Shown piece by piece: positions 3,300-21,060 of a DNA stretch of 64,000 nucleotides. The DNA comes from Mesorhizobium sp. (GTDB taxonomy: Bacteria; Pseudomonadota; Alphaproteobacteria; Rhizobiales; Rhizobiaceae). The stretch is taken from NCBI GenBank assembly GCA_051954615.1, contig JBQCHN010000096.1, forward strand, positions 17,030-81,029, read 5' to 3'. Both the position numbers and the translations under genes were made by a program. Within the stretch, counting starts at the first letter, position 1. Each line of letters begins with the position of its first letter. The notes under the pieces are model-generated. The model saw nothing but the letters and a program-made list of their open reading frames with translations. It was not told the origin of the DNA and made no database searches.

Positions 3300-3376
3300 A
3301 GATTAGCACCAATTCGCAGCTACCCAAAGGATTCGTAGCGCGCACTTTCGCTGTGCGTGACTTTTCGACGACTCAT

Positions 3377-3439
3377 TGTTGTGTCGTTTGGGATTCTGGT
3401 CGCTGCTGGATAAGGTCAATCTGCCGCTTGGATTATATG
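3377..3439 (+). repeat. candidate right-end transposase (TnsB) binding-site array
   Basis: Three similar sites: tgttgtgtCGTTtgGGATT (3377-3395), gtCGCTgctGGATAagg (3398-3415) and gcCGCTtGGATTat (3422-3439). They lie between the outside gene and the tnsA ATG at 3488. Confidence 0.35.
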
Positions 3440-3487
3440 AGGATTCCCTCAGGCGGCCAGTCTTGGGCTGCCGGGCGGCGTGCCGAT

Positions 3488-4429: not shown

Positions 4430-6689
4430 GATCGATGCGAAGATAGGGGAGACATACGTCTTCGTCCATGATGAGCCGAACCGATTGTATTGGCTGAAAG
4501 CTGTTACACCGAAAGGCAAATTTGTATTCTTTGATGAAGGTGGACATAGGAAGACCGTTGATCCCGTCGCATTCGAGCGAATGCGCGGCGATGGCCATGC
4601 CCGGCGTGTCCACCGCACGGGGATCACCGAAAGGGGTTTGCTTCCTCGGCACATCAATCCAAGCGTATTTATGGATCCCGCAGAAGACGCCAAATCACAG
4701 GGCGAAATCAACCGACGCAGAAAAGATGCGCGGACCCTCGATGAAGCCAGGACGCTCTATTTTTACACCAAACTGCTTGCTGAAAGCCCGGGTGTAACCT
4801 TCCACGTACCTGCCTTGCAGAGATTTATCGACGATAACTGCGCAGATGCTGAGGCAGAAGGACTGTATTGGAAACCCTCCCCCAGTGCGTTGAAGCGAGT
4901 TATCGATAAACACGGAGGTAAAGCAGAAGGCATTACGTTTGCTGCGATCTATGACCAGCGGAGGAAATGGTCACCAAGACAATGCTGGGATTCGCCGATC
5001 GTGAAAATGCGCAACAAAGTCGTGAAGTTCTATTGGTCGGATCGAGAACCGCCCTGCACCCTCACGGAAGCGCACGCATTTTTCTTCGCCACGATGATCA
5101 GGCTCAACAGGCGGCGTATCCGAGCAGGAATGGAGCCGTATAAAGTTCCGGTCCCTCAGACAGTTACCAACTGGATCGCGAAAGCGAATTCTAAGGCGAA
5201 TTTTGCTAGGCGGCATGGCCCCGATGAAGCAAGGCGCAAGATGGGCGCACGCGGACGCTCTACGGAGGTAAGCAGAGCGCTTGAGGTCGTTTTGATGGAC
5301 AATACTCAGGTGGATGTGTGGGCTGTCGTGCGTTCACCTGACGGGCAGATTATCGACCGCGTCAGACCGTGGCTGACTCTTGCCGTTGACGTCTATTCTC
5401 GGATGATTGTCGGCGTGCATCTTTCACTTGAGCCGGCGTCGCTGTCATCGGCTCTGGAATGTCTGAAACAGGTGGTGCGCCGTAAGGAACAGTTGATCAA
5501 GCGCTTTCCTGAATGTCCGGAAGCGGCAGACTGCTGGGGTCGAGTAGGCACCCTTATTGTAGATAACGGGTTAGATTTTGCGGCGCTGAGTTTCAGGGTT
5601 GCATGCGAATATGCCGGCATATCGCTTCGTTTCGCACCGGTGCGCACCCCCGAGTACAAGGGGATCGTCGAAAGGACATTTGGCACTCTTAACACCAGCC
5701 TCTGGCACCGACTTCCTGGGGGCATAGCTGAGACACCACAGGAGAGATCAAGGCTGCGCAAGGATCCTCGAGACCATGCTCATTTCACAGTGGAGGAACT
5801 CGAGCATCGCATGTGGGGCACCATAGTCCCGATACTCGGAATGAGTCCGCACACCCAGACCGGAGTTGCTCCCGCTAAACGCTTCTTCGAGAGTATTCGT
5901 GCCCACGGTCGGCCGACAGTGGACGATATTAGTTCTTTCGATGCAATTCTAGGGCAAACGAAGCGGTGCCTCCTCACCGCTGAAGGTATTCGATTCGACA
6001 ACCACAGATTCCACGATCCCGTCCTAACTAGCGAGTTGCTTGAGGACATGCTGTCGGATGCCAAAGAACGAGGACAGAGGAAGGTCGGTTCTTCCGCCAC
6101 CGTGTGGGTCTGGGCTCTAGCAACGCGGGAGGATTGCAGCCAGGCGATCGTGTATAATACTAAGAGGAAGGAGGCCGTGAGGCTTCCAAACTGGGACCCG
6201 GACATTCGGCCCTTAACTTCGTACAAGGAGGCATCGCTCCAAAGAGCACACAAGGATGCCGCGAACGAAGCCTATTTCTCCAGTGACGATCGGTGGCTCG
6301 CCCGAGACAGGGAGAGACGATCCCGTGAGGTTCCCAAGGCGAGAAAGCTACCTCGGAAGCCAAGAGAATTCTCCGAGATTGTACCTGCTGGCGGATTGCA
6401 GTTGATAGATGGAGCCGTAATCGAGGAGCGCTCGGTCGCACCGTCTGTCTCGGGGAGTCGCCCTGTCGATGTTCCGGGACGCATGCCCTTACACGAGCGG
6501 GTCGATGATCTCATTCCTCCGAAGGACCAACCAAGAGGGCGGGCGTCTTCCCGTAAGAGGAAGGCCGTCCGTGCCGCACCTAGAGGAAATGATGCGCTGC
6601 CGTTAGATAATATAGCTCCTGTACGCCCCTCTCAGTTCCGCATAGATGACCCAACCGCTTTTATGGCAAGTCTCGAGAGTGGAAAATGA
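4419..6689 (+). CDS. tnsB: TnsB-like DDE (retroviral-integrase-fold) transposase
   Basis: DDE triad context: LMDNTQVDVW, LIVDNGLDFAA, KGIVERTFGTLN. ATG 4419 is preceded by GGAGGG. The gene overlaps the tnsA stop (4429). Confidence 0.9.
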   Translation: MRTKIDAKIGETYVFVHDEPNRLYWLKAVTPKGKFVFFDEGGHRKTVDPVAFERMRGDGHARRVHRTGITERGLLPRHINPSVFMDPAEDAKSQGEINRRRKDARTLDEARTLYFYTKLLAESPGVTFHVPALQRFIDDNCADAEAEGLYWKPSPSALKRVIDKHGGKAEGITFAAIYDQRRKWSPRQCWDSPIVKMRNKVVKFYWSDREPPCTLTEAHAFFFATMIRLNRRRIRAGMEPYKVPVPQTVTNWIAKANSKANFARRHGPDEARRKMGARGRSTEVSRALEVVLMDNTQVDVWAVVRSPDGQIIDRVRPWLTLAVDVYSRMIVGVHLSLEPASLSSALECLKQVVRRKEQLIKRFPECPEAADCWGRVGTLIVDNGLDFAALSFRVACEYAGISLRFAPVRTPEYKGIVERTFGTLNTSLWHRLPGGIAETPQERSRLRKDPRDHAHFTVEELEHRMWGTIVPILGMSPHTQTGVAPAKRFFESIRAHGRPTVDDISSFDAILGQTKRCLLTAEGIRFDNHRFHDPVLTSELLEDMLSDAKERGQRKVGSSATVWVWALATREDCSQAIVYNTKRKEAVRLPNWDPDIRPLTSYKEASLQRAHKDAANEAYFSSDDRWLARDRERRSREVPKARKLPRKPREFSEIVPAGGLQLIDGAVIEERSVAPSVSGSRPVDVPGRMPLHERVDDLIPPKDQPRGRASSRKRKAVRAAPRGNDALPLDNIAPVRPSQFRIDDPTAFMASLESGK

Positions 6690-7708
6690 TTTCCATCTTC
6701 AAGCCGCCAACCGACGGTCAGATACTTTCTGCCTTCGACGAGATGTTGATCTGCCACAAGAGAGCGCAACAGGCACAGTCAATATTTGACTCCCTGAGGG
6801 AGGCCAAACGCTTATCGCCAAACACGCCTAAGAATTGGGTCGCGCTCTTCGCTCCAAGCTTTAGCGGAAAAACCCGGGCCGTCATGCTCTACATGGAACG
6901 CGTGATAGATGACGCGATCGCATCGGGTCGCTTCCCGCCGGAAATGACAAGAAATGAAATCGGAAAGGCTCAGACCAAAGTCATCTACCTCTCCATTCCG
7001 TCATCGAACGTTACTCAGAAGACGGTAATCACGATGTTGCTCGCGCGGTTGGGCGATCCGCTACCGGACAAGGGGAATACCGGCCAGCAGTTACAGCGCC
7101 TCTATGAGTTGATGCATAAGCTCGGCGTGGAGTTGGTGATCCTGGACGAGATGCAGCACTTGAGCGCAGCGATGCGCGAAGGGGCGCGGTCGCGCTCGAA
7201 GGATGGTCAGTACGCTCCGATTCCATATTTGATCAAGACGCTCCTCGATAACGGCCATGTTCCGATAGTTTGCATCGGGATAACTGAAGGAAGGAGTCAC
7301 TTGATGAGCAACAATGAACTCAGAAATAGATGCTTTAAGGAGTTAGATTTCTTACCAATTAAACCAGATAGCATTGATATGCTGGAAGTACTCGCGAAAT
7401 ATTTTGGAATGCTTGCGAATAAAATTGTTGAATATGGGCTTTTCCCGGATGTTCCTGATTTTATTTCTGGCGAGATCCCGGATTGTTTTGTGGATGTGTC
7501 GGGCGGCAAGATCGGTGAAGCCACTATGTTGGCACGAAGCGCCTGCTGTTTCGCAGCTCATCGAGGAGCGCGTTGCGTGGAATATGAGGACCTCGAAGCC
7601 GCTACGGACGAGGCGATTGCTGCAGGTAAGGTCAAGATCAATTTTTTCCGTCTGCGCAGGGAGAAGAAGGAGAGGGAAAGGGAACGGGAACTGGAAATGG
7701 CGGGATGA
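6686..7708 (+). CDS. tnsC: TnsC/TniB-like AAA+ transposition ATPase
   Basis: Walker A APSFSGKTRAV and Walker B LVILDEMQHL. There is a 4-nt overlap with tnsB and with tniQ. Confidence 0.88.
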   Translation: MISIFKPPTDGQILSAFDEMLICHKRAQQAQSIFDSLREAKRLSPNTPKNWVALFAPSFSGKTRAVMLYMERVIDDAIASGRFPPEMTRNEIGKAQTKVIYLSIPSSNVTQKTVITMLLARLGDPLPDKGNTGQQLQRLYELMHKLGVELVILDEMQHLSAAMREGARSRSKDGQYAPIPYLIKTLLDNGHVPIVCIGITEGRSHLMSNNELRNRCFKELDFLPIKPDSIDMLEVLAKYFGMLANKIVEYGLFPDVPDFISGEIPDCFVDVSGGKIGEATMLARSACCFAAHRGARCVEYEDLEAATDEAIAAGKVKINFFRLRREKKERERERELEMAG

Positions 7709-9714
7709 GTGGCTTGGCGGGAGAGTCTCAACGTGCAACTCGTGCACCCGGCATGGTTGAGGCCGTCTGGGACCGTGGACATCTCGCGATCCCGATTGCA
7801 CCCCTTCCGGGCGAAGGGCTTGCTGAGATGATTGTCCGCGCAACGGCCGAGAACAGCTACGGATGTTGCGCGACGATCACGAACGCTCTCGGGATCCGTG
7901 GAAAGCTCCCTGTTGGGTTGGCGACAAGATTTCAAGCGCGAGAAAAGGCGTTGGCTTCCTTGCTCGGTATTCCAGGCGAAGGCGAAAGCTTGAGGAGCCT
8001 ATTGTACCTACCGATGGAAGCGCGCACGGGTTGGCAATCGTTTTTTGGTACTTCCATACGGCAGATTTACCGTGAGGTTGCCGGGCGGCGCGTTTCGCCG
8101 CGAGCGTTGGCAATCTCCCCACATCTTAGGGCGATCTGGTCTGTTCGAATTTTCCCTTTCGATCCTCTAACCAAGGAAATGTTGATCAATCGATGCCCAG
8201 TTTGCTCCAAGTCCTTCGGATGGGCGAGGACGCGCGGGACTGTCTATTGTGATCAATGTCTGTCCATAGACGACCATGGTTGCGAACGAGGCATAGTCGA
8301 TCTGCGCGATTTTCCACAGCCTTTGGTAGATGAAAAGCATTGGGCTAAATTGGATATTCTGACGGGTCTTATTGATCCAGATCAGAGCATTCGCGCGGAT
8401 TTCAATCCACAGCTTCCTGAGGTTTTCAGGGTCTTTGATCGCGGCGAAATTTTTGAATTTGCGGTAGCGTTGGGATCCGCATTCGAGGGTCCGAGCAAAT
8501 CGCAATCATGTTATCTTAGCCGTGCTGCCAATAAGGAACAATGTTTGCGCTTTACGCCGGCCGCTCTGGCTAAGGTCGCAACAGCGCTCTTGGATTGGCC
8601 TGCAACATTCAACTCTGCAGTGGAAGCAACTCGAAATGACGCTTGGAACGATGCCGGCAACCTCCGGTGGCGAACGGTCTTTGGCTCATTCGCGCAACTA
8701 GCTATAGATCGCTTCATCCATCCTGGCCTGCAGAAATTGGTTCGAGGGGAGTTGGAACGGCACCTCGTGGGTTATCATAGTGAGATGCCTAGAATGAAGG
8801 GCGGTGTGAAGCGCCAAGATATGAACGCAGTTCCTATCTGCGTCGCCAGTGAAATCCTCAAGACGTCAAGGACGAGGATTAGCAGGCTGGTAAAACGCAA
8901 GAGGGTTTCCGCCATCACAACTGGCACGTCATCGAAGGCGTCTGTCCTCGTGTCGGTGCCACGGATCGCCGCTATCATCGCTGCAGATGCCGAACTCGTT
9001 TCAGTGGAAAGTGCAGCTTCCCGCTTGGGGCTTCCTGGGCTTGCTATACTTTCCCTAGTGGAGGACGGATTGTTGAGAAAGGGAGTCAACCATGAGGGCC
9101 AACACGTAGCTAAAACCGTAGCACGATGTTCGATAGACGAGTTGATTCGTACATTAGATGAGCGGCTGTGCCATTCTGCACCGCCGCCGAGAGTTCTCTC
9201 TCTTTTTTCTGCAGCCATCCTACTGGGTTCTCCCCGATCGAATCCTTGGCCTGACCTTCTGCAGTTGGTAATCCGGAAAAAGGTGACCGCATGGAAACGA
9301 AGGCTGCAGGGACCGGTGTCATCCTGCATCGCTGTCAATTTGAACGAAATAGAAGACCGGATAAGTTTGAAGAGACCATGGGCTTGTAAGGGCGACGCGA
9401 CTATATCTCACCGGGATGCCATCAGATTGCTGGGAACTAACGGAATGGTCCTGTATGCATTGTTTGACGCTGGTATACTCCCGCGCAAACTTCTGCTGTC
9501 CCATCTTCAGGCGTTTTCCAGTTCAAACGTCCTTACTGGGGAATTGCTGGATCAACTCACTGCCCGCGATATCTCGACGGTTCCCTACGCATTGATTCAA
9601 CATCTCCAAAAGCGAGGATTGCACGCCACCTCGGTGAAACGCGGCCTCGTGAGGCGCTGGATTTGGCCGCGTGCGAAAGCGGAAGCTGCCATAGGACATA
9701 TTTTAGTTGCCTAG
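7705..9714 (+). CDS. tniQ: TniQ/TnsD-family target-selection protein (669 aa)
   Basis: N-terminal TniQ pattern IPIAPLPGEGLAEMIVRATAEN and zinc module CPVCSKSFGW..YCDQC. Fourth gene of the overlapping tns operon. Confidence 0.85.
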   Translation: MSGLAGESQRATRAPGMVEAVWDRGHLAIPIAPLPGEGLAEMIVRATAENSYGCCATITNALGIRGKLPVGLATRFQAREKALASLLGIPGEGESLRSLLYLPMEARTGWQSFFGTSIRQIYREVAGRRVSPRALAISPHLRAIWSVRIFPFDPLTKEMLINRCPVCSKSFGWARTRGTVYCDQCLSIDDHGCERGIVDLRDFPQPLVDEKHWAKLDILTGLIDPDQSIRADFNPQLPEVFRVFDRGEIFEFAVALGSAFEGPSKSQSCYLSRAANKEQCLRFTPAALAKVATALLDWPATFNSAVEATRNDAWNDAGNLRWRTVFGSFAQLAIDRFIHPGLQKLVRGELERHLVGYHSEMPRMKGGVKRQDMNAVPICVASEILKTSRTRISRLVKRKRVSAITTGTSSKASVLVSVPRIAAIIAADAELVSVESAASRLGLPGLAILSLVEDGLLRKGVNHEGQHVAKTVARCSIDELIRTLDERLCHSAPPPRVLSLFSAAILLGSPRSNPWPDLLQLVIRKKVTAWKRRLQGPVSSCIAVNLNEIEDRISLKRPWACKGDATISHRDAIRLLGTNGMVLYALFDAGILPRKLLLSHLQAFSSSNVLTGELLDQLTARDISTVPYALIQHLQKRGLHATSVKRGLVRRWIWPRAKAEAAIGHILVA

Positions 9715-9730
9715 ATTGACAGGGAAGTCC
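9703..9730. repeat. repeat family copy A (TTAGTTGCCTAGATTGACAGGGAAGTCC), contains the tniQ stop codon
   Basis: Matches 19965-19992 at 26 of 28 positions in direct orientation. It fills the 17-nt gap between the convergent tniQ and the 841-aa gene. Confidence 0.8.
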
Positions 9731-9731
9731 G

Positions 9732-12257
9732 CTAATTCGTTAGACGACTCTCGTCGGCATCCTCCGGATCACTAATCAAGTCGAGTGTCCAGGTGTTTTG
9801 GACCGTGTCATAACACGCTTCAAGTGACTGCAGTTGTGACGAAATCTGGTTTCTCTCTAAAGGCCGCCCGAGTTTATCTTCCGCCGCAGTCAAAATTTCA
9901 GTGAGCGTCAAAGGCTTTGAACTCTCTCCCATTATTGCGGCGACAACATCATGCAAACTCTCTCTTCGCGGTGATCCCCATTCTGTCAAATAAAGATAAC
10001 GGCCAGTGCTGACTCGCATACGGTCGTCGGAGGTTGAGAGGCTGAAGAAGGCGGTGACGGTCAATCCTGATGCTTTCAAAGCAGCCGATCTTTCCATCTC
10101 CGAATAATGCAAGCCTGCGCCACGAGTTCGAAGAAGGTGCACTACTCCGTCCAGCAATCGACGTTGGTCCGCTCTCTTTATCGGCACGTCTCGATCATTT
10201 AGCCCCCACACGCCCGGAGCAGTTCTGATCACCGGATCGATAGAGAAAATCTGGAAGAGCTTGTCTACACCGCGCGATGCCATCACGCGCTCCCGAAGCT
10301 CTTTGGTTGTAAGCGGCCCCCCAGCATTCTCTAGAGCCGCAATGGTCGCTTGTCGGATGTCGATCCGAAACTTATCATCCTGTCCATCCTTGATGTCCAG
10401 CGTCCACACGAGACGCCCGAGTCGCTCTACACCCCCAATGCGTTTTAGCGCGATATCCAGCAAGTACTTGTCGAACCTTTCTGCGTCTGGGATGTCACGC
10501 TCGGAGAGTTCAGCAACCAACTCCGACGTGTGCCATTGGCGGCCTCGTGGGCCCTCCGCGATAATCTGCTCTGCTTCCTCTGCAATCCTTAGCATCGTGT
10601 CCGCATCAACGACGACGTGCTTGTCGAGGCCATATGTGCCACGCCCGAACAGAAGGCCCACATTGGCCGCAGCGTTGTGAGCACGTCTGACGTCAAGATT
10701 GTGAGAAAAGCTCTGCGCAACTAGCTCGGGTAATTCTGAGTAGTGGAGCGGTCTATCTGAGGATGAGAGGGTCGCGTATACGAGATTTTCGGCAGATTTC
10801 CCGAAACTTGTGAGAATGCGGCCCTCAACGGTTTCGGTGAATTGAGCGTCGCGGGTGGCGGTTTCCCACAACAACTCGCGAAACTCGCGGCATTGATCTG
10901 GCAACAGCGGTAAGATCACGGATCTGCAATGCTCGTGCGACCAATTGTGGTCTGCGCCGTCATCAAGCAAGCGTCGAGAGGCAGAGACGGCGTCTTCCCA
11001 CTCACTTTGCCGCATTGCACCCAAGTATTGGACGCCATCAATTTCGATAACTCGTATTGGCGTAGATGCAACGTGTTCCAAAAGATACGCGAGGGTTTCT
11101 AAGTGATCGGCAATTCCAGAGAACCAAGCATCTGCAGCCTCCAGACCATGTAAGGGGATGGGCATAATCCGCTCTCTGATGATCTGGTCCACTCGGTGTG
11201 CCAACTCGTCATCCCAAGTCTCTAACTTGATGATGCGAGCAACCATCTTCGATTCAACTTGGCGAATGCGTTCACGAGTGACGCCAAAGCGTTCCCCGAG
11301 TTGTTGGAGGGTTTCAGCGGTGCCCCCATATCCCATACGACGGATAACAATCTCTCTTTGCCTTTCGGAGAGTGTAGCCAAGGACGCATCCAGCGATTCT
11401 AACAACGTCGACCATCGACGAACTTCATTTTTGTGAGAGTCGACGTCGCCCGATGGGCTACCGTAACTGTCTTCTGGGCCCCGATCCAACGCGGACATCA
11501 GAGAAGAGAACAGGTCCCAAGCAGATTTGCGCCCGAAATTCTGCATGTGCAGAAGGTCGTCAAGCGATAGTGACGCAAGATCGCCAATAGTCTTAATATT
11601 TTTCACGCTGAAGACGTTCGCCACTCGCACCGTTACATCGATCGACTCGACGGTTCGTTCGCTTAGCCAAGGCGGTGCGGCGCGGGCCACGCTGCATGGG
11701 TCTTTAGCTTCTCCAGTTAACATCTGCCCGAACCTGAAGAGCCCGAGATCGTGCCGAAGAGTGCGGGGTAACTTATGTTCAAAGTCCAGATAACTGGCCT
11801 CGTTGAATATGCCAAACTGGCGAAGCTGCTCCTCTCGATCCGCAAACTTCACAAGGAAACGGCGCACCCACCCGTCCGGGGACCATTCTTGGGCTTGCTG
11901 AACAGGAGTTGACGCGGGGCGAATCTTGTCCTCTAGTTCGTAGCCCCAGCCGCGCAAAGCTAGGTAGATTGGGATTCCTGCAACTTTCCCGAGAGACGTA
12001 GAGGAAGAGACAAACCCGGATGGCAGTCCATACTTTGCTGATTCAGTCAGCAGCAGATGGCCAGCGTGTTCACTGACAATCTCCTCAAAGTCGCGAGATG
12101 GAGGCCGGGAGAACCCAACGTGGAGCACGCCGACGCTAGCATCCGGCGATGGACGAGATTTCCAACTTTCGAGCAACTCTTCCAATTCACGATGGACGGT
12201 AACGGTCCATTCGGCATCATGCCGAAGCATCAAAAATGCCCGCAAAGGAATAGTCAT
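9732..12257 (-). CDS. 841-aa multi-domain DNA-binding protein: RNAP alpha-CTD-like HhH + sigma-70 region 4 HTH + several HARE/winged-helix modules
   Basis: Alpha-CTD-like segment: VRVANVFSVKNIKTIGDLASLSLDDLLHMQNFGRKSAWDL. Sigma r4-like segment: LSERQREIVIRRMGYGGTAETLQQLGERFGVTRERIRQVESKM. Repeated PL(T/H)..EL....wHTH-like segments occupy the C-terminal half. The start overlaps the upstream stop (TAATG). Confidence 0.8.
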   Translation of the reverse strand: MTIPLRAFLMLRHDAEWTVTVHRELEELLESWKSRPSPDASVGVLHVGFSRPPSRDFEEIVSEHAGHLLLTESAKYGLPSGFVSSSTSLGKVAGIPIYLALRGWGYELEDKIRPASTPVQQAQEWSPDGWVRRFLVKFADREEQLRQFGIFNEASYLDFEHKLPRTLRHDLGLFRFGQMLTGEAKDPCSVARAAPPWLSERTVESIDVTVRVANVFSVKNIKTIGDLASLSLDDLLHMQNFGRKSAWDLFSSLMSALDRGPEDSYGSPSGDVDSHKNEVRRWSTLLESLDASLATLSERQREIVIRRMGYGGTAETLQQLGERFGVTRERIRQVESKMVARIIKLETWDDELAHRVDQIIRERIMPIPLHGLEAADAWFSGIADHLETLAYLLEHVASTPIRVIEIDGVQYLGAMRQSEWEDAVSASRRLLDDGADHNWSHEHCRSVILPLLPDQCREFRELLWETATRDAQFTETVEGRILTSFGKSAENLVYATLSSSDRPLHYSELPELVAQSFSHNLDVRRAHNAAANVGLLFGRGTYGLDKHVVVDADTMLRIAEEAEQIIAEGPRGRQWHTSELVAELSERDIPDAERFDKYLLDIALKRIGGVERLGRLVWTLDIKDGQDDKFRIDIRQATIAALENAGGPLTTKELRERVMASRGVDKLFQIFSIDPVIRTAPGVWGLNDRDVPIKRADQRRLLDGVVHLLRTRGAGLHYSEMERSAALKASGLTVTAFFSLSTSDDRMRVSTGRYLYLTEWGSPRRESLHDVVAAIMGESSKPLTLTEILTAAEDKLGRPLERNQISSQLQSLEACYDTVQNTWTLDLISDPEDADESRLTN

Positions 12258-12637
12258 TACTCGCTAGCTTTCGCTGCGACCTGATCAAATATGGCCACGA
12301 AATCTAGATTCCCGTTTCGGGCTTGAGCCGAAAGCTCATTGACACCCCACTCGGCCAGCCGTTCAATCAGCCTGTACGGAGTTATTTCGGCGACCTCTTC
12401 CGGCATTAGCATTTCAACGGAACGACGGAATGACTGGTCGGGGTCCAACGAGCCTATATTCAGAAATGGCGAACGGTCCGATAGCTCAGGCGGGATGACG
12501 CCTTGTGCCAGTGCGAGAGAAACCGCAAATCGAAAGCCGTCCATCTTTTCTGCGAAAATGCCGCTCTCTTTGAGGTCGTCGAGCTTGTCGTTTCCAGCCT
12601 TCGACAACCCAATCGTCACGATTTCCTGTTGGCTCAT
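12257..12637 (-). CDS. DndE-like small DNA-binding protein (126 aa)
   Basis: Size, position directly after a DndD-like gene, and the pattern LSKAGNDKLDDLKESGI...FRFAVSLALAQG...LDFVAIF resemble DndE. ATGA overlap with the upstream gene. Confidence 0.5.
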   Translation of the reverse strand: MSQQEIVTIGLSKAGNDKLDDLKESGIFAEKMDGFRFAVSLALAQGVIPPELSDRSPFLNIGSLDPDQSFRRSVEMLMPEEVAEITPYRLIERLAEWGVNELSAQARNGNLDFVAIFDQVAAKASE

Positions 12638-14619
12638 AGCGCCACCCGCTCGATACGCGACTGGGTCGGAGAAACCTCTACAATCTGGTAAGTGCCGCCA
12701 ATTCTCGATCTGATGCTGCTCAAATCTGTATCGGGGCGGATTTCACCGCTATGGACAAGAAGCACAAACTGACTGGTGACCTCTGGCAGATATCCGAGGA
12801 TATTATCGCGATGGTTGAGGTCTAGTCTGCCAAACGGTGTATCCATTATAACTGGTCCTACCGCTCGGCCTGTACGATTCAAACCATCGATTAGGGACAG
12901 GGCCACAACTTGTTCAGCACCAGCACTTCTGATCGTTACTTTTCGCCCCATGTTATCGATGATGCTTAGTCCGTAGTTGGAATTGATCTCCAGGCCGCGA
13001 TAGCTTTTCTGCGTGGTCATCCTCCGAAAGGCATCATTTGCCAAATCTTCCACGCGCGATCGCAACCTATCTCGGAGTTTCTCGATGCTGGCTGCAAACA
13101 CGCGCTCTAGTTGCTGCGTGATATTGACTTTGGACGTGCTGCGGCGTGAGCGGGAGGCGGCCAGGCCTGCAATTGCCTTTTGAGCAATCGCCAGGTCCTG
13201 ACGCACTTTATCTATATCTTTCTTTACACGCTCGATATCGCTCTGAAGACGACCTTCCTCTTTCACAGCATCGTCTTTGAGCACCCGTTTTCGAGCCAAC
13301 TCGGCAGTGTCTTGGCCGCTGATCTCATCTTGTATCGATTCTATGTCGTTTTCAGTCCGCTGCAATTCGACCAACGATCGCCGCATGTCGCGATCAATCT
13401 CGCGTAGGCGATCTGCGGCGTTAACGCCTCGTATTTTACTAATTGATGCGAGTTGTCCCGCGATAGACTCAAGCTCGTTGGAAGTATCTTTAGCGCGAGA
13501 CAGTTCAGCCTCCAAAGAGCCAAGTTTGGTTCCGAACTCGTGATTGTGACCTGAGTCAACCTTTTGACCGCATGTTGGGCAAACACCTTTTGCAACTAAA
13601 TCTTGTAGTTGACGCACTGTACCCTCAAGCTTCGCTTGATGCTTGACCTCTTGCGTAAGTTCTCGGCGACGGTATTCGAGAGCCGATCGCTTTGTACTGA
13701 GCTTCGCATCCAATAGGTCTTGCCATGCTTGTCCCAAAAGTGTTCTTCTGTCGATCTCTTTTTGCCTGATAGTGATATCAAGATTTGATTTCACTAATTT
13801 CAAGCCATCAAGTTTCGCCTTTTGAGTAATTAGGGTATTCGCCGCCTCTAAATCATCTTCCAACTGCGTGCGCGACTTCCGTGTTTGCTCTAATTTTAGC
13901 TGGAGCGTATCCCGGTCACGTTCCAGAGCTTCTTGACGTGTCATCAAATCTCTTTGGTTTGCAGCTTGCCGCTCCAAGCCATTAATCTGCTGAAGTTCTA
14001 CTGCTTGTTGTTTCTGCGCTCCTTTGAGGATCGAGCCGAGTTCAGCCCGCCCCTTGGTTAGGGCCGGAACACCCAAGACATCCTCAATCGCCTCCTTGAT
14101 CTGTCGCCCTTGCTCGCTTCCTTCGATCAGGAGGCTCTCATATTCTTGCAAAAGTTCGCCGTCGAAAAGGAAGAAACGAGAGATTTGCTCCGGGGCGATC
14201 TGATCGATCTCTTGCTTAATTTGATCTCCGCTAACAGCAGAGCCATCCTTTGTCAGGTGCTCCGATACGGTGAAGTCTTCGGGGCGTGCTGGGATTGCGA
14301 CATTCGCTCGACGATCAGCGATTCGTCGAAGGTCATACATTGAGCCATTTGCTTCAAATTGAACGAAGACTTGAACGCGCCAATCTCCTGCCGCCGCAGC
14401 ATCTTTGTTCACGATATCTTGCATCGGGATTGGCCGAGAATGGCGGCCGATGGCTTTGCCGTAGAAGCCCCATCTCAAGGCGTTCAAGAAACTGGTTTTA
14501 CCCCGCATGTTGTCGCCGAACACGATCATGACATTTCGTTGCTCGTCCGTGGGGAATTCGAGCGACATGTCGCCGTGGTAGGGCATGAAGTTTCGTGCTG
14601 TGATCCGGTGTAATTTCAT
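12634..14619 (-). CDS. DndD-like SMC/Rad50-type ATPase (661 aa)
   Basis: Walker A GDNMRGKTSFLNALRWGFYG, FFLFDGELL, long coiled-coil middle with CPTCGQ, and C-terminal VIMDTPFGRLD. Confidence 0.8.
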   Translation of the reverse strand: MKLHRITARNFMPYHGDMSLEFPTDEQRNVMIVFGDNMRGKTSFLNALRWGFYGKAIGRHSRPIPMQDIVNKDAAAAGDWRVQVFVQFEANGSMYDLRRIADRRANVAIPARPEDFTVSEHLTKDGSAVSGDQIKQEIDQIAPEQISRFFLFDGELLQEYESLLIEGSEQGRQIKEAIEDVLGVPALTKGRAELGSILKGAQKQQAVELQQINGLERQAANQRDLMTRQEALERDRDTLQLKLEQTRKSRTQLEDDLEAANTLITQKAKLDGLKLVKSNLDITIRQKEIDRRTLLGQAWQDLLDAKLSTKRSALEYRRRELTQEVKHQAKLEGTVRQLQDLVAKGVCPTCGQKVDSGHNHEFGTKLGSLEAELSRAKDTSNELESIAGQLASISKIRGVNAADRLREIDRDMRRSLVELQRTENDIESIQDEISGQDTAELARKRVLKDDAVKEEGRLQSDIERVKKDIDKVRQDLAIAQKAIAGLAASRSRRSTSKVNITQQLERVFAASIEKLRDRLRSRVEDLANDAFRRMTTQKSYRGLEINSNYGLSIIDNMGRKVTIRSAGAEQVVALSLIDGLNRTGRAVGPVIMDTPFGRLDLNHRDNILGYLPEVTSQFVLLVHSGEIRPDTDLSSIRSRIGGTYQIVEVSPTQSRIERVAL

Positions 14620-14623
14620 CTGA

Positions 14624-14827
14624 CTAGCTCTGCAGGTGGTCGAGCATGTTTTTGACGTGTACGTCTATGAGCCTCTCCATCTCTATCTGAGACGCGGAGC
14701 GATCGTCGCTAAACTGAAAGCGCTTTTGGACCTGATAGCATTGCTTCAACAGGAGATCATCGACCGTCGGTTCCGCCTCTTGGCGAACCGAAAGTAGAGT
14801 CTCTAGGGTCAGGTCTTCGTCTGACAT
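14624..14827 (-). CDS. 67-aa acidic hypothetical protein
   Basis: Wedged between the helicase (1-nt TAATG overlap) and the DndD-like gene (4-nt gap). I count 14 D/E against 7 K/R. Confidence 0.55.
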   Translation of the reverse strand: MSDEDLTLETLLSVRQEAEPTVDDLLLKQCYQVQKRFQFSDDRSASQIEMERLIDVHVKNMLDHLQS

Positions 14828-16920
14828 TATTCGTCCCCCTCTATTCCGGTATCGGTTAGCGTGTCAGGATCAATACCAAGCTCGATGGCAATAGCCCGCA
14901 ACTCCGCACCACCAGCGCGATTTAACGCATGAGATGAAAACTCGATCGAGCGAACAAGTTCTGCCTTAAGAAGACCCATCTGATCTGACTCGTCTTCGGC
15001 ATTTACGGGTACAACGATCGCGTCGTGAATCACTGCCAAGTCTTTCTCGGGCGATTTTCGAAGTACGCGACCTCTACGTTGTATGAACTGCCTTGGGTTT
15101 TGGGATGAGGCCAGGATGAGCGCATGCGAGATCGAGGGAATATCGACACCTTCGTCAAGGCAGCGAATTGACACTAAAACGCCTCCAAAAGTGCGGAACC
15201 ATGTCAGAGTTGCATTGCGATCGCCACTCATCGAAGAGTGATACTCTACGGCATCAATACCAGCGTCTTTCAGACTTCCGAGGACGACTCCCAATTGATC
15301 CGCGTCTTCACAATAGACCAGCCAACTCTGACCTTTCTCGAAATGATTTTTTAGAACGCTCACCGCCAGTGCCACCTTTGCAGTGGCCTTCTTGGCAACA
15401 CGTGATCGTTGGATCAATAACATCTTGGCTCGTTCCGAAACGGACTTTTTTCCGTTCGAATCAGTGGGTTGTCTCGCAATTTCTTGACGTATCGAATGGG
15501 TGATCTTGCTCCATTCTTCTGCTTCTGTTGCCGAAAGGTGCACCGGGTGAGGGAAATATTCATATGGGACCAAGCGCCCGGCATTAATCGCATCATTTAT
15601 GGTGATGGGTGGTGGAACGACTTCTCCGAAATACTGGAACATCCTTGCGGTCCCGTCTTGGTCACCAAATCGCTGGGGAGTTGCGCTCAGTCCAAGACGA
15701 GGGCCTGATGCGAGATTGTAGACATTCGAATTTCGACGGCTCCCTGATTGGTGCACCTCATCTGCTACAAGCATCAGGTGATCGCCGCCCCTTACCAAAT
15801 TCAGAAAATCCAAACTCGATGCGGTTTGCATGGTCGACAGCACGATCCTAGCACCGAGTGAGGGATCGGGGTCCGTCATGCTTTGAAGGCGTCCAGCTTT
15901 TTTCCACCCGTCGTTTCCGCCTCCAGCTAGCATCAGAGCCGCAGACGGAACTTCTTCGCGAAGCTCTTTGGCCCACTGCTCCAAAAGCAATTGACTTGGC
16001 ACCAACACCAACGACGGTAGGCCCAGACTCAAGTGCTTATTGAGAGCGGTAATAGCCGTAAAAGTCTTGCCACTCCCTGTCGCATGCTCAAAAATGCCAC
16101 GGCGGCCACTAGCTTCCCAACGACTGATTGCATCCATCTGATGGGGTAGTGGGGTGCGCTTGTCGCGAACTGGCTGCAATTGCAGTTCCGTCACGTCGTC
16201 CAACCCTTTCAGAGCGTGTTTCTGCAGACGTTCGATAGCAACGCTGGGAAATGGAAACACTTCCACGTCCCGGTCGGTTTGTGACCATAGTGAATCGAAA
16301 TGATTTTCATGGCGATTAACACGCTCAGCTTCCAATCCACCGCGCCAGCTGCAAAAAACTTCTATTGATTCAAAGTTACCGCTTGGGTCCCATGCGCTCC
16401 ACGTCTCGTTAGCCGATCCTTTGAACGAAACTCTGTTGCCCAAACCGTCCGAGAAAATGCCCAATTTTTCGTGATATAGCCCCTTTCGATCTGATCGAAA
16501 TGCGAGCTTTATCTCCAACGCATTTACGGCGACCAGGGTCGCTAGAATGCGTGCGTGTTGTTGAGTCGTTGGTTCCGATAAGAGCTGGTCGATTTGCTCA
16601 ACCAATCGTTGAGCGACGTGGCTGCTTCGTTTCGCGTAACCGAGCACGATCGAGTCGATGTCTGATGGATCAAGCTCAGGCGAACAAATCAGACATATTT
16701 TCCCTCCGCGACGTGCGAAGTCTACAACACTGCCCCCCGTGACGACGAAAACCGTCGAACGGAAATATCCTGCCGCGCGCTTGTAGGTATTTGAGTGCTG
16801 GAGACAGGGTCTGTAGAAGCTCGTTGCGGGCGTCTCTTTGATTGAGCGGTACTCTGTACGGAGATTGAGCACGGATAGATCGCCGAGAAATTCGTTACGG
16901 ATCGTGCTGCTCCCGGTCAT
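14827..16920 (-). CDS. PLD-family (single HKD) nuclease fused to SF2 DEAD/DEAH-type helicase; restriction-enzyme-like
   Basis: HKD motif YHEKLGIFSD..FKGSANETW. Helicase motifs HATGSGKTFTAI, LVADEVHQSG, LSATP and QRRGRVLR. Confidence 0.85.
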   Translation of the reverse strand: MTGSSTIRNEFLGDLSVLNLRTEYRSIKETPATSFYRPCLQHSNTYKRAAGYFRSTVFVVTGGSVVDFARRGGKICLICSPELDPSDIDSIVLGYAKRSSHVAQRLVEQIDQLLSEPTTQQHARILATLVAVNALEIKLAFRSDRKGLYHEKLGIFSDGLGNRVSFKGSANETWSAWDPSGNFESIEVFCSWRGGLEAERVNRHENHFDSLWSQTDRDVEVFPFPSVAIERLQKHALKGLDDVTELQLQPVRDKRTPLPHQMDAISRWEASGRRGIFEHATGSGKTFTAITALNKHLSLGLPSLVLVPSQLLLEQWAKELREEVPSAALMLAGGGNDGWKKAGRLQSMTDPDPSLGARIVLSTMQTASSLDFLNLVRGGDHLMLVADEVHQSGSRRNSNVYNLASGPRLGLSATPQRFGDQDGTARMFQYFGEVVPPPITINDAINAGRLVPYEYFPHPVHLSATEAEEWSKITHSIRQEIARQPTDSNGKKSVSERAKMLLIQRSRVAKKATAKVALAVSVLKNHFEKGQSWLVYCEDADQLGVVLGSLKDAGIDAVEYHSSMSGDRNATLTWFRTFGGVLVSIRCLDEGVDIPSISHALILASSQNPRQFIQRRGRVLRKSPEKDLAVIHDAIVVPVNAEDESDQMGLLKAELVRSIEFSSHALNRAGGAELRAIAIELGIDPDTLTDTGIEGDE

Positions 16921-16942
16921 GAAGTTACAGCCGCCCTCGATT

Positions 16943-18076
16943 CTACTCTGCGAGGGACCCGGTAAATTCAGAGAACCGACCTTGTGAACCCCTTACGTAG
17001 TCAGGATCGGCTTCAACTCCGATCCATTTGCGTCCCAACGCTTGCGCGACGGCCCCGGTGGTGTTCGATCCTGCGAAGGGATCGAGAACCAAGTCATTGG
17101 GCGATGTCAGAAACTGCACAAAGAACGCTGAGAGCATTGCTTGCATGCGAGCGGGATGGGCGGGAAGATTATGCGTTTTGCAATAGTCGCGATAGTTTGC
17201 GTCCCACTTGGTGCCTGAGAATTTCAGGAGCGCTTCGGGCGCATTGGTTTCATCGGCAAGTTCAAGCACATTCGCTGAAATCGCTCCACCATGATCCCTT
17301 AGAAAGCCTGTTTCAGAAATCACGTGCCCAGATGGTCGAGCACCAGGATTGTATTTGCCTGTTTTGAGCAGGCGCTTCATGTCTTTGCTGTAAGGCTTAA
17401 GGACGTTGCGGTTGTCGGCCTTAGGGTCCTTGGACTTCGACATCCACCAGACGTGTGTGAATGAGTCCTTTAACCTGACCCGCTTGACGTTCACCCATGC
17501 TGCGGGGCTAGGTAGCCGGGCTGGATTGTGGCAGATCACATGCTGACAGAGATACAGTCCGGCAGATTTTTTGATTTCAAGTAGAGCTTCGAGTGGAAGC
17601 GTAGACATCACTGGAGCCCCTTCTTCCCAAGCGTTCCCGATCTCGATAACAATCGAGCCGTCGTCCGTCAGAAGTTCGGCTAGTGGTTTTGCGAGGGCGC
17701 TCAGCCACTCTATGTACGCCTGCCCAGTTTCATTTCCATAGCGTTTCTTTCGAACGAGCGGAAAGGGCGGCGATGTTACTATCAGATTAACCTTGCCCTT
17801 CAGGTCCAGTAAGGCAGCGGAATGAAGCGCGTGCTCAATTCTGCCATGAAGCATGGTCCCCGAACCTGTTTGGTAGGCCTTGACTACGGGACCGACCACG
17901 TCCTCCGACGGACCCGTCTCACTGACGGGCGATATCAGATGCAAATGCGCATTGACGGATATCTGCTTGCCTTTCGCCGTGTCAGCGATGGCTTTGCCCT
18001 CGGCTTCTCGACCGTTTTTCTCGACGCAACGAGCTTTCCTCACCACGCGCCCATTTTTTTGCGCATGCTCATTCAA
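16943..18076 (-). CDS. beta-class N4-cytosine/N6-adenine DNA methyltransferase
   Basis: Motif IV IVTSPPFPL comes before motif I VLDPFAGSNTTGAVA. SPPF favours m4C, but this is not decisive. Confidence 0.85.
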   Translation of the reverse strand: MNEHAQKNGRVVRKARCVEKNGREAEGKAIADTAKGKQISVNAHLHLISPVSETGPSEDVVGPVVKAYQTGSGTMLHGRIEHALHSAALLDLKGKVNLIVTSPPFPLVRKKRYGNETGQAYIEWLSALAKPLAELLTDDGSIVIEIGNAWEEGAPVMSTLPLEALLEIKKSAGLYLCQHVICHNPARLPSPAAWVNVKRVRLKDSFTHVWWMSKSKDPKADNRNVLKPYSKDMKRLLKTGKYNPGARPSGHVISETGFLRDHGGAISANVLELADETNAPEALLKFSGTKWDANYRDYCKTHNLPAHPARMQAMLSAFFVQFLTSPNDLVLDPFAGSNTTGAVAQALGRKWIGVEADPDYVRGSQGRFSEFTGSLAE

Positions 18077-18262
18077 TCAAGAATTACCCCGCCAGCGTCC
18101 GAATCGCTTTGATCTTACAGACGCACCTTTACCCCGCAATGAATTGTTACAAGAAGCAGGATAGCAACACACGTCAAGTGAAAAACGGGTCATGCTCAGC
18201 GAGATCGAGCGGAAATTTGATGCTAAGCAGCCGACAGGAGTCGACTGGACTCTCGGCGACCG

Positions 18263-18293
18263 ACAACAAGCCAAGCGTTTCCGGGCTTGTTGT
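18263..18293. promoter_or_regulatory. perfect 10-bp inverted repeat (ACAACAAGCC N11 GGCTTGTTGT) in divergent intergenic region
   Basis: Read directly from the sequence. It lies between the MTase start (18076, minus strand) and the NYN gene start (18420, plus strand). Confidence 0.4.
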
Positions 18294-18419
18294 GATTATT
18301 GCGACAAGGCGGAAATCCGACGACGAGGGGCAATCAGGTATGTTTCTCGGATATTGGGTCAGTGAATTCGATGCTACCCGATCGTCTCGGGCGGATGAAA
18401 TTTTTGGTTGGAGATCGCC

Positions 18420-19193
18420 ATGGTGTCTGAAACTCGTTCACCTCGGCTTGCGGTTCTGATCGATGCAGACAACGCCTCGGCAAAGATCGCCGACGGCCTG
18501 TTCGAAGAGATCGCGAAGATCGGCGAGGCCAGTGTCCGGCGGATCTATGGCGACTTTTCGAGTACGCGCTCAAAGGCTTGGGCCGATATCCTATCGAAAC
18601 ATGCGATCATACCCCAACAGCAGTTCGCCTATACGACTGGCAAGAACGCCTCCGATATAACATTGGTGATCGATGCGATGGACCTGCTCCATAGCGGGCG
18701 GTTTGACGGTTTCTGTCTCGTCTCATCTGACAGCGACTTCACGCGGCTTGCTGCCCGAATCCGTGAGCAGGGCGTTGATGTCTTCGGTTTCGGGGAGCAG
18801 AAAACGCCTGAAAGTTTCCGTCAGGCCTGTCGCCGATTTATCTATACCGAGAATCTGCTGCCGTCTGCCCCTGCAAACGAACCAGAGGCCGCACCGAGCA
18901 CGAAGTCCCTGCAGCCACCGTCGGCGGCCGTGCCGATCATCCGGAAGGTCATCGCGCAGATGGAGAGCGAGGACGGTTGGGTTCCGCTCGGTGCGGTCGG
19001 CAATCAGCTCGCCAATCTGGCTTCCGATTTTGATCCCAGGACATTTGGCTTCCGCAAACTGAGTGATCTCGTGCGGAAAACGAATGCATTCGACATCGAG
19101 CATCCCGAAGGTGGCAGCATGCGGATTCGTATCAAGCCCGCCGGCAACCGACCCTCGACGACTAAATCAAAGGGACCGAGATCCAAGGGCTGA
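18420..19193 (+). CDS. NYN (LabA-like) ribonuclease-fold protein with C-terminal OST-HTH/LOTUS domain
   Basis: LAVLIDADNAS and FCLVSSDSDFTRLAARIREQG mark the NYN domain. The C-terminal segment GWVPLGAVGNQLA..FGFRKLSDLV is LOTUS-like. Confidence 0.8.
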   Translation: MVSETRSPRLAVLIDADNASAKIADGLFEEIAKIGEASVRRIYGDFSSTRSKAWADILSKHAIIPQQQFAYTTGKNASDITLVIDAMDLLHSGRFDGFCLVSSDSDFTRLAARIREQGVDVFGFGEQKTPESFRQACRRFIYTENLLPSAPANEPEAAPSTKSLQPPSAAVPIIRKVIAQMESEDGWVPLGAVGNQLANLASDFDPRTFGFRKLSDLVRKTNAFDIEHPEGGSMRIRIKPAGNRPSTTKSKGPRSKG

Positions 19194-20166: not shown

Positions 20167-21060
20167 TCACTTGCGGAATCGGGGAGTCCAGCTTTCGATC
20201 AGCGCGTCTTCGTCATCGTCTTCAGGCTCGGCCTCAGAGCGCATGCTGAGCGACTTGCACGTCAGAATCGTCAGAGTACGCCCGTACTGCCCAAGTCCGA
20301 CCACCTCTTCGGTGATGCGATAGTTGCCGCCGCCGCCCATCCAGTCACTCAACCGTCTCTGGCCCTCGTCGCGTTGACCTGTACGCACGTTCTCGGGGCT
20401 GGCATTAAACTGCGCCGTAATGGTGCCTGAGGGAACGCCGATGCCCTTTCGCAGGTAGGTCAGTCCCTTCGCCTGCTTGAGGCCATCAGACATGAAGCAC
20501 CAGTCAACGGCGTCGCCTGTCGTGCAGATGACTGCAACACCGTCTGATGTAAGGGTGCAGTATCGGATGGCGGTCGCCGTCAACGACGTTTCGCATTCTT
20601 TTCGCAGCGCCTCGACGCAGGCCAAGCCCGCATCCCGATCCGCAATCGCTTTCTTGAACGGCGCTTCCGGCATGAGAAGAGCGGCTGCGAAGTGATCCGC
20701 CTCTTGTTCAAAAGGATCACCTGACACGAAGCCCGCGCGTGATTGATGAACACCCGTCGTGAGCAGCGCTTCGGGGTGTCCTTCAATGAAGTAGTGTCCC
20801 AGCTCGTGGCTGATGCTGAACCTCTGAAAGCCACGGCTGGGAATGTTCGTTGCGTACATGATGCCGAAATCATCACCGGCTTTGATCAGCATACCCGAGA
20901 CGCCTGAAGCTGTGTCAGGCTTAGGCCGCACCATGATCCCCTTCGTGGCAGCGATTGCCTCGGGGTCGACCCACAGTCCTTCAACCTTCATCTGCCGAAG
21001 CACTGCATTGGCAGCAGCCTCAGCCAGAGTACGACGTGCGAGCCGCGGTTTCGTGTTCAT
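20167..21060 (-). CDS. ImmA/IrrE (M78) zinc metalloprotease, CapP-like
   Basis: HELGHYFIEGH motif. ATGA overlap with the upstream XRE gene. Confidence 0.85.
   Translation of the reverse strand: MNTKPRLARRTLAEAAANAVLRQMKVEGLWVDPEAIAATKGIMVRPKPDTASGVSGMLIKAGDDFGIMYATNIPSRGFQRFSISHELGHYFIEGHPEALLTTGVHQSRAGFVSGDPFEQEADHFAAALLMPEAPFKKAIADRDAGLACVEALRKECETSLTATAIRYCTLTSDGVAVICTTGDAVDWCFMSDGLKQAKGLTYLRKGIGVPSGTITAQFNASPENVRTGQRDEGQRRLSDWMGGGGNYRITEEVVGLGQYGRTLTILTCKSLSMRSEAEPEDDDEDALIESWTPRFRK

Follow-up and report, generated by a model that had tools for sequence, protein, structure and literature searches.

A six-gene operon in Mesorhizobium sp. (contig JBQCHN010000096.1 of assembly GCA_051954615.1, positions 17,030 to 81,029; this 64-kb stretch is referred to as the window) is a cytosine-methylase-linked version of the PbeABCD system. 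Its four central genes are pbeABCD, preceded by a gene for a methyltransferase (MTase) of the M.PvuII type and followed by a gene for an 841-amino-acid (aa) protein, hereafter the sigma-like protein. We consider it probable (about 0.7) that the locus is an ATP-dependent, restriction-modification-like Pbe defence system in which N4-methylcytosine (m4C) takes the place of phosphorothioate as the self-mark. Its conserved sigma-like subunit, which combines sigma region 4 and winged helices with a domain resembling the C-terminal domain of the RNA polymerase alpha subunit (alpha-CTD), defines a Pbe variant that we have not found described, the rest of the system belonging to a known family.

The four central genes are pbeABCD

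The initial annotation of this DNA had listed PbeABCD as absent from the window and had considered the architecture to be unnamed. Both statements had to be abandoned. When PADLOC was applied as a library of hidden Markov models, protein by protein, its PbeA and PbeC models were matched with E-values of 1e-211 and 5.9e-290, and PbeABCD is a named antiviral system (PMC6459918) that is identical to the CxC ABC-ATPase/DndE system (PMC10853773). According to the PADLOC authors, detection of pbeB and pbeD often fails, and the loci concerned are then assigned to the 'PT_other' model (PMC9252829). Xiong 2019, where pbeABCD was named, reported that dndCDEA-pbeABCD protects a haloarchaeon ~10^4-fold against virus SNJ1, that this protection needed host phosphorothioation and that removing any one pbe gene impaired it (PMC6459918). 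In the same study 320 of 553 pbeAC pairs were without dnd genes, 155 of these 320 were located within 10 kb of an MTase, and a pairing with methylation was proposed (PMC6459918). Rakesh 2024 (section 16) equates Pbe with the earlier CxC ABC-ATPase-DndE system of Krishnan et al. 2020 and assigns PbeA as an HKD nuclease with a superfamily 2 (SF2) helicase, PbeB as a small protein, PbeC as a CxC ABC ATPase and PbeD as a DndE cognate; it also describes CxC systems with 'circularly permuted cytosine-N4 methylases' and proposes HKD-mediated cleavage, with phosphorothioate or methylation as the discriminator between self and non-self (PMC10853773).

PbeA was matched by the PADLOC model PDLC02707 over residues 15-669 of 697, and by Pfam ResIII (1.8e-19), Helicase_C (1.1e-13) and, weakly, PLDc_2 (4.8e-5); its score against TIGR04095 (5.1e-94) fell under the cut-off of that family. 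Judged by its sequence, it is a single-HKD (PLD-family) nuclease fused to an SF2 (ResIII/DEAD) helicase. The catalytic HKD motif (HEKLGIFSD...GSAN) was located by a regular-expression search and the H-x-K...GS-x-N pattern is kept in 47/47 full-length orthologues. The PADLOC models of type I, IIG and IV restriction matched the helicase weakly (E 3e-14 to 1e-4) and over parts only, and no type III restriction model was among the PADLOC matches. The ATPase had been called DndD-like, a call that is correct as far as it goes: TIGR03185 (DndD) is matched with 135 bits (2.5e-39), under its cut-off of 245.85. The best model is nevertheless PbeC (PDLC02725), matched at 5.9e-290 over its full length (1-646 of 646), against just 2.7e-48 for the best DndD model. 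Walker A (GDNMRGKTS in the window) is present in 54/56 PbeC orthologues, and a central CxxC, the zinc-hook motif at the coiled coil's apex, in 56/56, reading CPTC in 46 of them as it does here.

The two small proteins are less easily recognised. PbeB is acidic (14 D/E vs 7 K/R in 67 aa) and matches Pfam Sp-DndD, a family of small proteins from some Dnd modification systems, at 6.1e-5 with 23.5 bits, under the gathering score of 27.2; orthologues in the same position match Sp-DndD above that score, and the Aurantiacibacter orthologue is named 'DNA modification system-associated small protein' by PGAP. From these matches, PbeB is the 'SP' of CxC-DndE systems, and, with a mean pairwise distance of 0.64, it ranks second in divergence among the cassette genes. 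For the 126-aa protein, no match was obtained in Pfam (PF08870 included), NCBIfam or PADLOC, a profile search of the PDB gave nothing with an E-value below 0.3, and hhalign against one DndE gave a probability of 8%. Its AlphaFold2 model (mean predicted local distance difference test score, pLDDT, 74.7) gave a different picture: when it was compared to the PDB with Foldseek, the top 15 matches were all DndE (4lrv, 7x4e, 5wtu), with probabilities of 0.87-1.0 and TM-scores of up to 0.67/0.73, the next non-DndE match having a probability of 0.08. Since sequence profiles fail and the structural matches are all DndE, PbeD is recognisable by fold only. On this modelled fold, the 126-aa protein is PbeD, the DndE-fold cognate partner of PbeC, as the initial call of a DndE-like protein had implied.

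The modification gene encodes an M.PvuII-type methyltransferase

The first gene of the operon matches Pfam N6_N4_Mtase (3.1e-34) and PADLOC MTase_II (1.3e-78). Its product aligns with M.PvuII, a crystallised N4-cytosine methylase (PDB 1boo), over the whole catalytic body (3.5e-65, residues 67-370 against 9-296). Both SPPF and DPFAGSNTTG align with the matching M.PvuII motifs, so that motif IV (SPPF/Y) precedes motif I (FxGSxTT), as expected from the beta-class assignment made initially, and SPPF or SPPY is kept in 44/44 MTase orthologues. With the adenine methylases CcrM, DpnA, MboIIA and RsrI, the match is confined to the final 60-70 residues of the protein. By these alignments the enzyme is a beta-class DNA methyltransferase of the M.PvuII family, with a predicted N4-cytosine specificity. 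The 5' end given here for the gene (18076) is the TTG of the longest open reading frame (ORF); because the protein is conserved with its Devosia orthologue from residue 25 and is homologous to M.PvuII only from residue 67, the true start is probably downstream of this position.

Methylation as the modification used here is further supported by the surroundings, as no DndC, DndA, DndB or canonical DndE was detected in the 64-kb window. The suggestion that a DndD/E-type pair had been rewired to a methylation-based restriction module is right about the coupling to a methylase and wrong about its novelty: DndD/E-type proteins together with a methylase and a PLD-helicase are already in print, from comparative genomics (PMC6459918, PMC10853773).

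The sigma-like protein is built from DNA-binding modules

The layout of the sigma-like protein was obtained from its AlphaFold2 model (mean pLDDT 83.8) and Foldseek (Table 1). Its alpha-CTD-like domain matches Pfam RNA_pol_A_CTD (2.9e-11) and superposes on RNA polymerase alpha-CTD structures (9dvt, 7vpd) with a root-mean-square deviation (rmsd) of 1.0-1.1 A at 30-33% identity. Three of its residues (R211, G242, S245) are kept in 93-100% of 45 homologues; we take them to correspond to R265, G296 and S299 of E. coli alpha, its DNA-binding determinant. Past a disordered linker, sigma region 4 matches Pfam Sigma70_r4 (1.1e-10) and the region 4 of SigA (rmsd 1.1-1.8 A, 43-47% identity), and R328, E329, R330, R332 and Q333 of its recognition helix are conserved in 98-100% of the same 45 homologues. 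The C-terminal array of winged helices is more remote: HARE-HTH was matched on the C-terminal segment at 3.4e-5 (one repeat, just under the gathering score), and Foldseek returned the SelB C-terminus (1lva, E 4.5e-4), UFL1/DDRGK1, Dcc1 and STK19. The initial view of this protein as an assembly of RNA polymerase-derived DNA-binding modules is thus sound, its HARE-HTH part being weak.

No sigma region 2 was detected with Pfam or NCBIfam and, because it is missing, the protein is not a sigma factor; all its sigma-family scores are far under the family cut-offs. Among the curated families of Pfam, NCBIfam and PADLOC, none spans the protein from end to end; the best match in NCBIfam and PADLOC is MzaA, over residues 284-341 (58 residues) with 46.9 bits vs a cut-off of 800. 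The Devosia equisanguinis orthologue (L081:10001-12637) is annotated as 'RNA polymerase principal sigma factor HrdA', a misannotation arising from the region 4 match alone. The same region governed a scan of a genome collection with the alignment of the 841-aa family, which was keyed on TRERIRQIE and returned ordinary sigma factors and a single true distant relative. This relative (L001:8348-12190, plus strand), from a Polyangiaceae metagenome-assembled genome, is 1280 aa long and 24% identical to the sigma-like protein over residues 206-825; its alpha-CTD domain is present twice and is accompanied by region 4 and a winged-helix array. Its neighbours are a 1467-aa protein with STAND/AAA and HerA(DUF87) ATPase domains (1569-5972) and a 771-aa protein with a caspase domain and bacterial Death-like domain 3 (5986-8301). 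The alpha-CTD/region 4/winged-helix module thus seems to have been reused in an unrelated conflict system.

The sigma-like gene is linked to pbeABCD and co-diverges with it

Clustering at 90% identity divides the 841-aa family into at least 126 clusters, which have their full-length architecture in common. The order MTase-PbeA-PbeB-PbeC-PbeD-sigma-like was found in Devosia, in Rhizobium ruizarguesonis and in a metagenome-assembled genome from ENA, each with unrelated flanks. It is also kept on the Aurantiacibacter atlanticus plasmid NZ_CP015441.1 (L090:10001-13521), the only PLSDB plasmid with the six-gene cassette, where IS3 splits the sigma-like gene and leaves the other five intact; a megablast search of the window locus against plasmids gave no match. 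For a census, metagenomes were scanned with PbeD alone as the seed, which yielded 80 loci (35-79% identity) that were scored with profiles of all six proteins. The sigma-like gene was immediately 3' of pbeD in 75/78 evaluable loci. A PvuII-type MTase was adjacent in 39/41 complete clusters, often with stop and start codons that overlap or nearly do so, and its placement varied: upstream on the same strand as in the window (23 clusters), convergent downstream (11), downstream on the same strand (3) or divergent upstream (2). Homologues of the six genes therefore do co-occur elsewhere, a point on which the initial annotation had made its case depend. Since the six-gene order is found again between differing flanks in genomes and metagenomes that are unrelated, it is not due to chance and the genes form a single cassette. 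The PbeD-like family as a whole contains 330 clusters at 50% identity (E<=0.001; 139 at E<=1e-10), and its named hosts are mostly Alphaproteobacteria, plus one Desulfovibrio.

The sigma-like gene stays with Pbe whatever accompanies the pair, be it a methylase, dnd genes or neither. In one locus (L089), where the sigma-like relative is 31% identical, the MTase is convergent downstream. In another (L087, 9497-18799; 30% identity) there is no MTase, and the cluster adjoins dndB-C-D-E, dndA and an Mrr-type nuclease; its sister contig (L088) has a gene for a 1716-aa DndH-like (DUF87/TrwB) protein directly upstream. Given these neighbours, Pbe with a sigma-like gene also exists in a phosphorothioate context, although dnd genes were adjacent in one sampled locus only. 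Two further loci, L148 (5726-13039) and L170 (5726-13138), have PbeABCD and the sigma-like gene, but neither a PvuII-type MTase nor a dnd gene occurs within 5.7-7.3 kb. A Pfam scan of flanking ORFs covered L148, where the flanks are housekeeping genes (between clpB/nadC and tamAB), and the flanks of L170 were screened for PvuII-type MTase and dnd genes. In these two loci, either the modification gene is elsewhere or the module works without a linked one.

A single full-length locus seeded by PbeD (L158), which represents the MTaX1 variant of the literature (PMC10853773), has no sigma-like gene anywhere. There, a gene with MTaX1 (PF20296, 1.1e-20) is directly upstream of pbeA, a DDE transposase gene follows pbeD, and an 885-aa fusion of an N6_N4 MTase with Mrr_cat is encoded nearby (Table 1). 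From this locus, the MTaX1 and sigma-like accessories look mutually exclusive. No sigma-like gene was present in the four classical plasmid Pbe clusters that we inspected. One locus (L086:9618-13444) combines a PbeD-like gene with a 1147-aa sigma-like protein in which the alpha-CTD/region 4 unit is triplicated; it is without PbeA, PbeB, PbeC or an adjacent methylase, lies amid housekeeping genes and looks like a remnant.

Co-divergence was measured as the Pearson correlation between distance matrices from 25 complete cassettes. The sigma-like protein was strongly correlated with both PbeA (r = 0.94) and PbeC (r = 0.94), at the level of PbeA vs PbeC (0.95), and the MTase reached only about 0.5 with any other cassette gene. 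Partial correlations separated the two relations: 0.16 for the sigma-like protein and MTase given PbeC, vs 0.91 for the sigma-like protein and PbeC given the MTase. Methylases could differ by 60% between cassettes whose PbeC was 11% divergent. The sigma-like protein is also the fastest-diverging large protein of the cassette, with a mean pairwise distance of 0.66 (0.44-0.53 for MTase, PbeA, PbeC and PbeD). This pattern indicates that the restriction module of a distinct Pbe clade has the sigma-like protein as its fifth member and that the methylase is swappable, in parallel to the weak DndCD-PbeAC correlation (rho = 0.107) reported by Xiong (PMC6459918). Literature searches for 'PbeE' or a sigma-linked Pbe found nothing relevant, their coverage of the CxC literature being incomplete, and a sigma-like protein as the obligate partner of this Pbe clade appears to be unreported in the accessible literature.

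Operon layout and surroundings

The coordinates of the six co-directional, tightly packed minus-strand ORFs, the overlaps or short gaps at all five junctions and the quoted motifs of the methylase, nuclease-helicase and ATPase were all recovered as initially described when the ORF list and the sequence were read directly (Table 1), and the domain calls (DndD-like, DndE-like, RNA polymerase-derived modules) were likewise correct. In a promoter and terminator scan of positions 9400-18600, sites were no commoner than in shuffled sequence and none was found at the operon ends.

The 3' end of the operon faces a tni/Tn7-like transposition block that converges on it and ends 17 nt from the operon stop codon; the 669-aa ORF in the TniQ position of this block is without a Pfam match. 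A search for terminal inverted repeats or element ends gave nothing convincing. The earlier proposal that the operon travels as transposon cargo thus agrees with the abutting tni-like genes, lacks the element ends and is plausible but unproven. With the genes located upstream of the operon, the surroundings look like a mobile defence island.

Table 1. Positions of the operon genes, their domains and motifs, and the neighbouring genes in the window; the last three rows are numbered within locus L158.
Feature	Position	Strand	Details
MTase (M.PvuII-type, modification component)	16943-18076	-	377 aa; 22-nt gap to PbeA, same strand
PbeA	14827-16920	-	697 aa; TAATG overlap with PbeB
HKD catalytic motif of PbeA	16408-16473	-	aa 150-171
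PbeB	14624-14827	-	67 aa; 4-nt gap to PbeC
PbeC	12634-14619	-	661 aa; ATGA overlap with PbeD
CPTC zinc-hook motif of PbeC	13570-13581	-	aa 347-350, coiled-coil apex
PbeD	12257-12637	-	126 aa; TAATG overlap with the sigma-like gene
Sigma-like protein	9732-12257	-	841 aa
N-terminal alpha/beta domain			aa 1-105; without detectable relative
Helical region			aa 129-199; without detectable relative
Alpha-CTD-like domain	11478-11660	-	aa 200-260
Disordered linker			between alpha-CTD-like domain and sigma region 4
Sigma-70 region 4	11223-11405	-	aa 285-345; recognition helix TRERIRQ intact
Middle domain			aa 346-488
~5 tandem winged helices (HARE-HTH-like)	9774-10793	-	aa 489-828
tni/Tn7-like transposition block	3353-9714	+	358-aa ORF, 762-aa rve-domain transposase, 340-aa TniB ATPase, 669-aa ORF
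NYN + OST-HTH protein	18408-19193	+	upstream of operon
ImmA/IrrE M78 peptidase	20167-21060	-	upstream of operon
JAB + ThiF(E1) fusion	22492-23874	+	upstream of operon
UvrD-like helicase	24870-27587	-	905 aa; upstream of operon
MTaX1 gene (L158)	5150-5716	+
DDE transposase (L158)	10529-12055	-
MTase-Mrr_cat fusion (L158)	12176-14833	-

A model for methylation-coupled Pbe and its alternatives

The components have an observed identity or fold and conserved motifs, the sigma-like gene is linked to and co-diverges with pbeABCD, and the methylase is exchanged as a module. For the order in which these parts would act, we infer the following. The methylase would mark host DNA with m4C at its own recognition sites, m4C presumably replacing phosphorothioate. 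The zinc-hook ABC ATPase PbeC and the DndE-fold PbeD would load on DNA and scan it, like DndD-DndE. The sigma-like protein, as a fifth and structural restriction subunit, would contribute DNA recognition through its alpha-CTD-like domain, region 4 and ~5 winged helices, and the acidic PbeB may be a small essential or regulatory subunit. PbeA would be the effector: its SF2 motor would translocate and its HKD domain would nick or cut unmarked DNA, or else the complex would stall replication in some other manner. By analogy with the archaeal phosphorothioate-coupled Pbe, the system would be expected to act against viruses, to require each of the four pbe genes and to depend on host modification.

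Several observations weigh against this model. In the archaeal phosphorothioate-coupled system, Pbe blocked replication and no DNA cleavage or degradation was seen (PMC6459918). Free exchange of the methylase is awkward for a restriction module that reads one specific mark, as are the methylase-less copies (L148, L170), and the module may instead use the methylase itself for recognition or respond to another trigger. Methylase-linked Pbe is known from comparative genomics alone, the binding of the sigma-like protein to DNA or to other subunits is predicted, its N-terminal (aa 1-105) and middle (aa 346-488) domains have no assignable function, and the window searched for dnd genes is one part of the genome.

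The alternatives mostly concern the sigma-like protein. It could be a decoy or sensor that displays the RNA polymerase surfaces (alpha-CTD, sigma region 4) commonly attacked by phages, in which case a phage takeover factor that binds or modifies it would set PbeABCD free or activate it, the methylase serving just to shield the host against background activity. Phage T4 attacks both surfaces, sigma region 4 through AsiA and alpha R265 through ADP-ribosylation by Alt/ModA, and the protein has features that suit such a role: a region 4 unusually close to housekeeping sigma, an alpha-CTD-like domain that superposes at 1.0 A, an invariant R211 that is equivalent to alpha R265 in our own alignment, and the fastest divergence among the large cassette proteins. 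Its module also persists without a linked modification gene (L148, L170), and the L001 relative, found in a different conflict system without Pbe genes, fits a portable sensor. Against this, conservation falls precisely on the residues that contact DNA (RERxRQ; R211, G242, S245), as plain DNA binding would predict equally well, the ~5 extra winged helices exceed the needs of a decoy, we know of no phage partner of the protein, and the whole support is by analogy, so that we regard a decoy as unlikely. A bolder version, which we give the same small chance of being right, would have the protein imitate, as a free-standing unit, the surfaces with which RNA polymerase recognises promoters, alpha-CTD and region 4 being adjacent in the order seen on an UP-element/-35 promoter, and act as a guard or decoy for hijacking phage factors or as a loader of the restriction complex at strong invader promoters; if true, the reuse in L001 would mark a portable 'RNAP-surface sensor' common to unrelated immune systems.

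That the sigma-like protein merely regulates transcription of the operon or acts as its alternative sigma factor seems very unlikely. Its sigma region 4 and alpha-CTD-like domain point in this direction, as do the PGAP or submitter names ('sigma factor-like HTH protein', 'RNA polymerase principal sigma factor HrdA') and the precedent of MzaA, a sigma-family protein in a defence system. Sigma region 2, which binds core polymerase and reads the -10 element, is nevertheless absent, and just residues 284-341 match MzaA or RpoD. A protein of 841 aa with ~5 winged helices, r = 0.94 with PbeA and PbeC and an overlapping TAATG start looks instead like a stoichiometric subunit. In the least probable account, a phosphorothioate system is split and the operon is its restriction half: dndA, dndC, dndD and dndE would lie elsewhere in the genome, PbeABCD would sense phosphorothioate as it does in archaea, and the methylase would be an orphan or an unrelated gene. 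The sole experimentally characterised Pbe is phosphorothioate-dependent, a relative from this clade (L087) adjoins dndBCDE-dndA, and the visible part of the genome is 64 kb, all of which would suit a split system. This is countered by the lack of DndC, DndA, DndB and DndE homologues in the window, by the adjacent PvuII-type MTase in nearly all complete clusters, vs dnd genes in one sampled locus, and by the position of the window MTase, 22 nt from pbeA on the same strand. We thus favour the methylation-coupled Pbe system with the sigma-like protein as its fifth subunit.

Significance

The mechanism of Pbe is contested: archaeal experiments indicate a replication block without cleavage, and comparative genomics points to HKD-mediated cutting. 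This bacterial clade could make the mechanism more accessible. Its predicted m4C self-mark is easily detected by sequencing and easily altered, the clade would show cleanly whether the type of modification matters to the Pbe restriction module, and the domains of the fifth subunit suggest how target DNA or the invader is recognised. Annotation pipelines name the six genes methyltransferase, DEAD-box helicase, small protein, AAA ATPase, hypothetical protein and sigma-factor-like protein, the last of them being called 'principal sigma factor HrdA' in one genome. Under such labels, surveys of defence genes can easily overlook the system or score it wrongly.

Comparison with known systems

With respect to DndBCDE-DndA, PbeC and PbeD form a sister pair of DndD and DndE, as seen from the TIGR03185 match and the DndE fold. 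The operon differs from canonical DndABCDE, as DndC, DndA and DndB are missing from the window, PbeC scores under the DndD cut-off and carries a CxxC hook, and PbeD has no Pfam DndE match. Two other defence systems were considered and rejected. MADS is an operon of eight genes and ~22 kb, with a kinase and a specificity subunit among its products (bioRxiv 10.1101/2023.03.30.534895); neither is present here and the PADLOC matches are Pbe. As for Hma, it is not among the 20 PADLOC families matched by the helicase, and the top matches of both helicase and ATPase are Pbe.

Type I/III restriction-modification and DISARM (DrmA/DrmC) have in common with the operon the logic of a methylase combined with an SF2 translocase and a nuclease, and DISARM DrmC also uses a nuclease of the PLD/HKD type. 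In contrast to type I/III restriction-modification, the window contains no HsdS or Mod-dependent recognition subunit, and its methylase is stand-alone, type II-like and independently exchanged; compared with both groups, the operon adds the ABC ATPase-DndE pair and the multi-HTH protein. MzaA (NF041931) of the MZA anti-phage system likewise places a sigma-70 region 4 in a defence-system protein, but outside region 4 the proteins and their partner genes are unrelated.

A parallel for an accessory gene is the MTaX1-type CxC variant, which likewise combines a Pbe core, an N6_N4-family methylase and one extra accessory gene (PMC10853773). In that variant the extra gene encodes a ~110-aa domain on a 188-aa protein upstream of pbeA, whereas in the window it encodes an 841-aa protein downstream of pbeD. 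MTaX1 (PF20296) was not matched in any of the six proteins and tblastn of the L158 MTaX1 protein against the window found nothing; MTaX1 being a separate Pfam family seen just in the exceptional L158 locus, the sigma-like protein was rejected as the published MTaX1 accessory.

Within Pbe itself, PbeC of the window clade is just 22-25% identical to PbeC of the classical plasmid-borne clusters, and its PbeD is recognised by no sequence profile, whereas PbeD of the classical clusters has ~155 aa and is named 'DNA phosphorothioation-associated protein 4'. The dndCDEA linkage of the type system was not found in the window. Nevertheless, the four proteins and their order are shared by the operon and the characterised PbeABCD, and the PADLOC PbeA and PbeC models match over their full length. 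The characterised system is archaeal, coupled to dndCDEA and made of four genes; the window operon is coupled to an M.PvuII-type methylase and has a fifth conserved gene.

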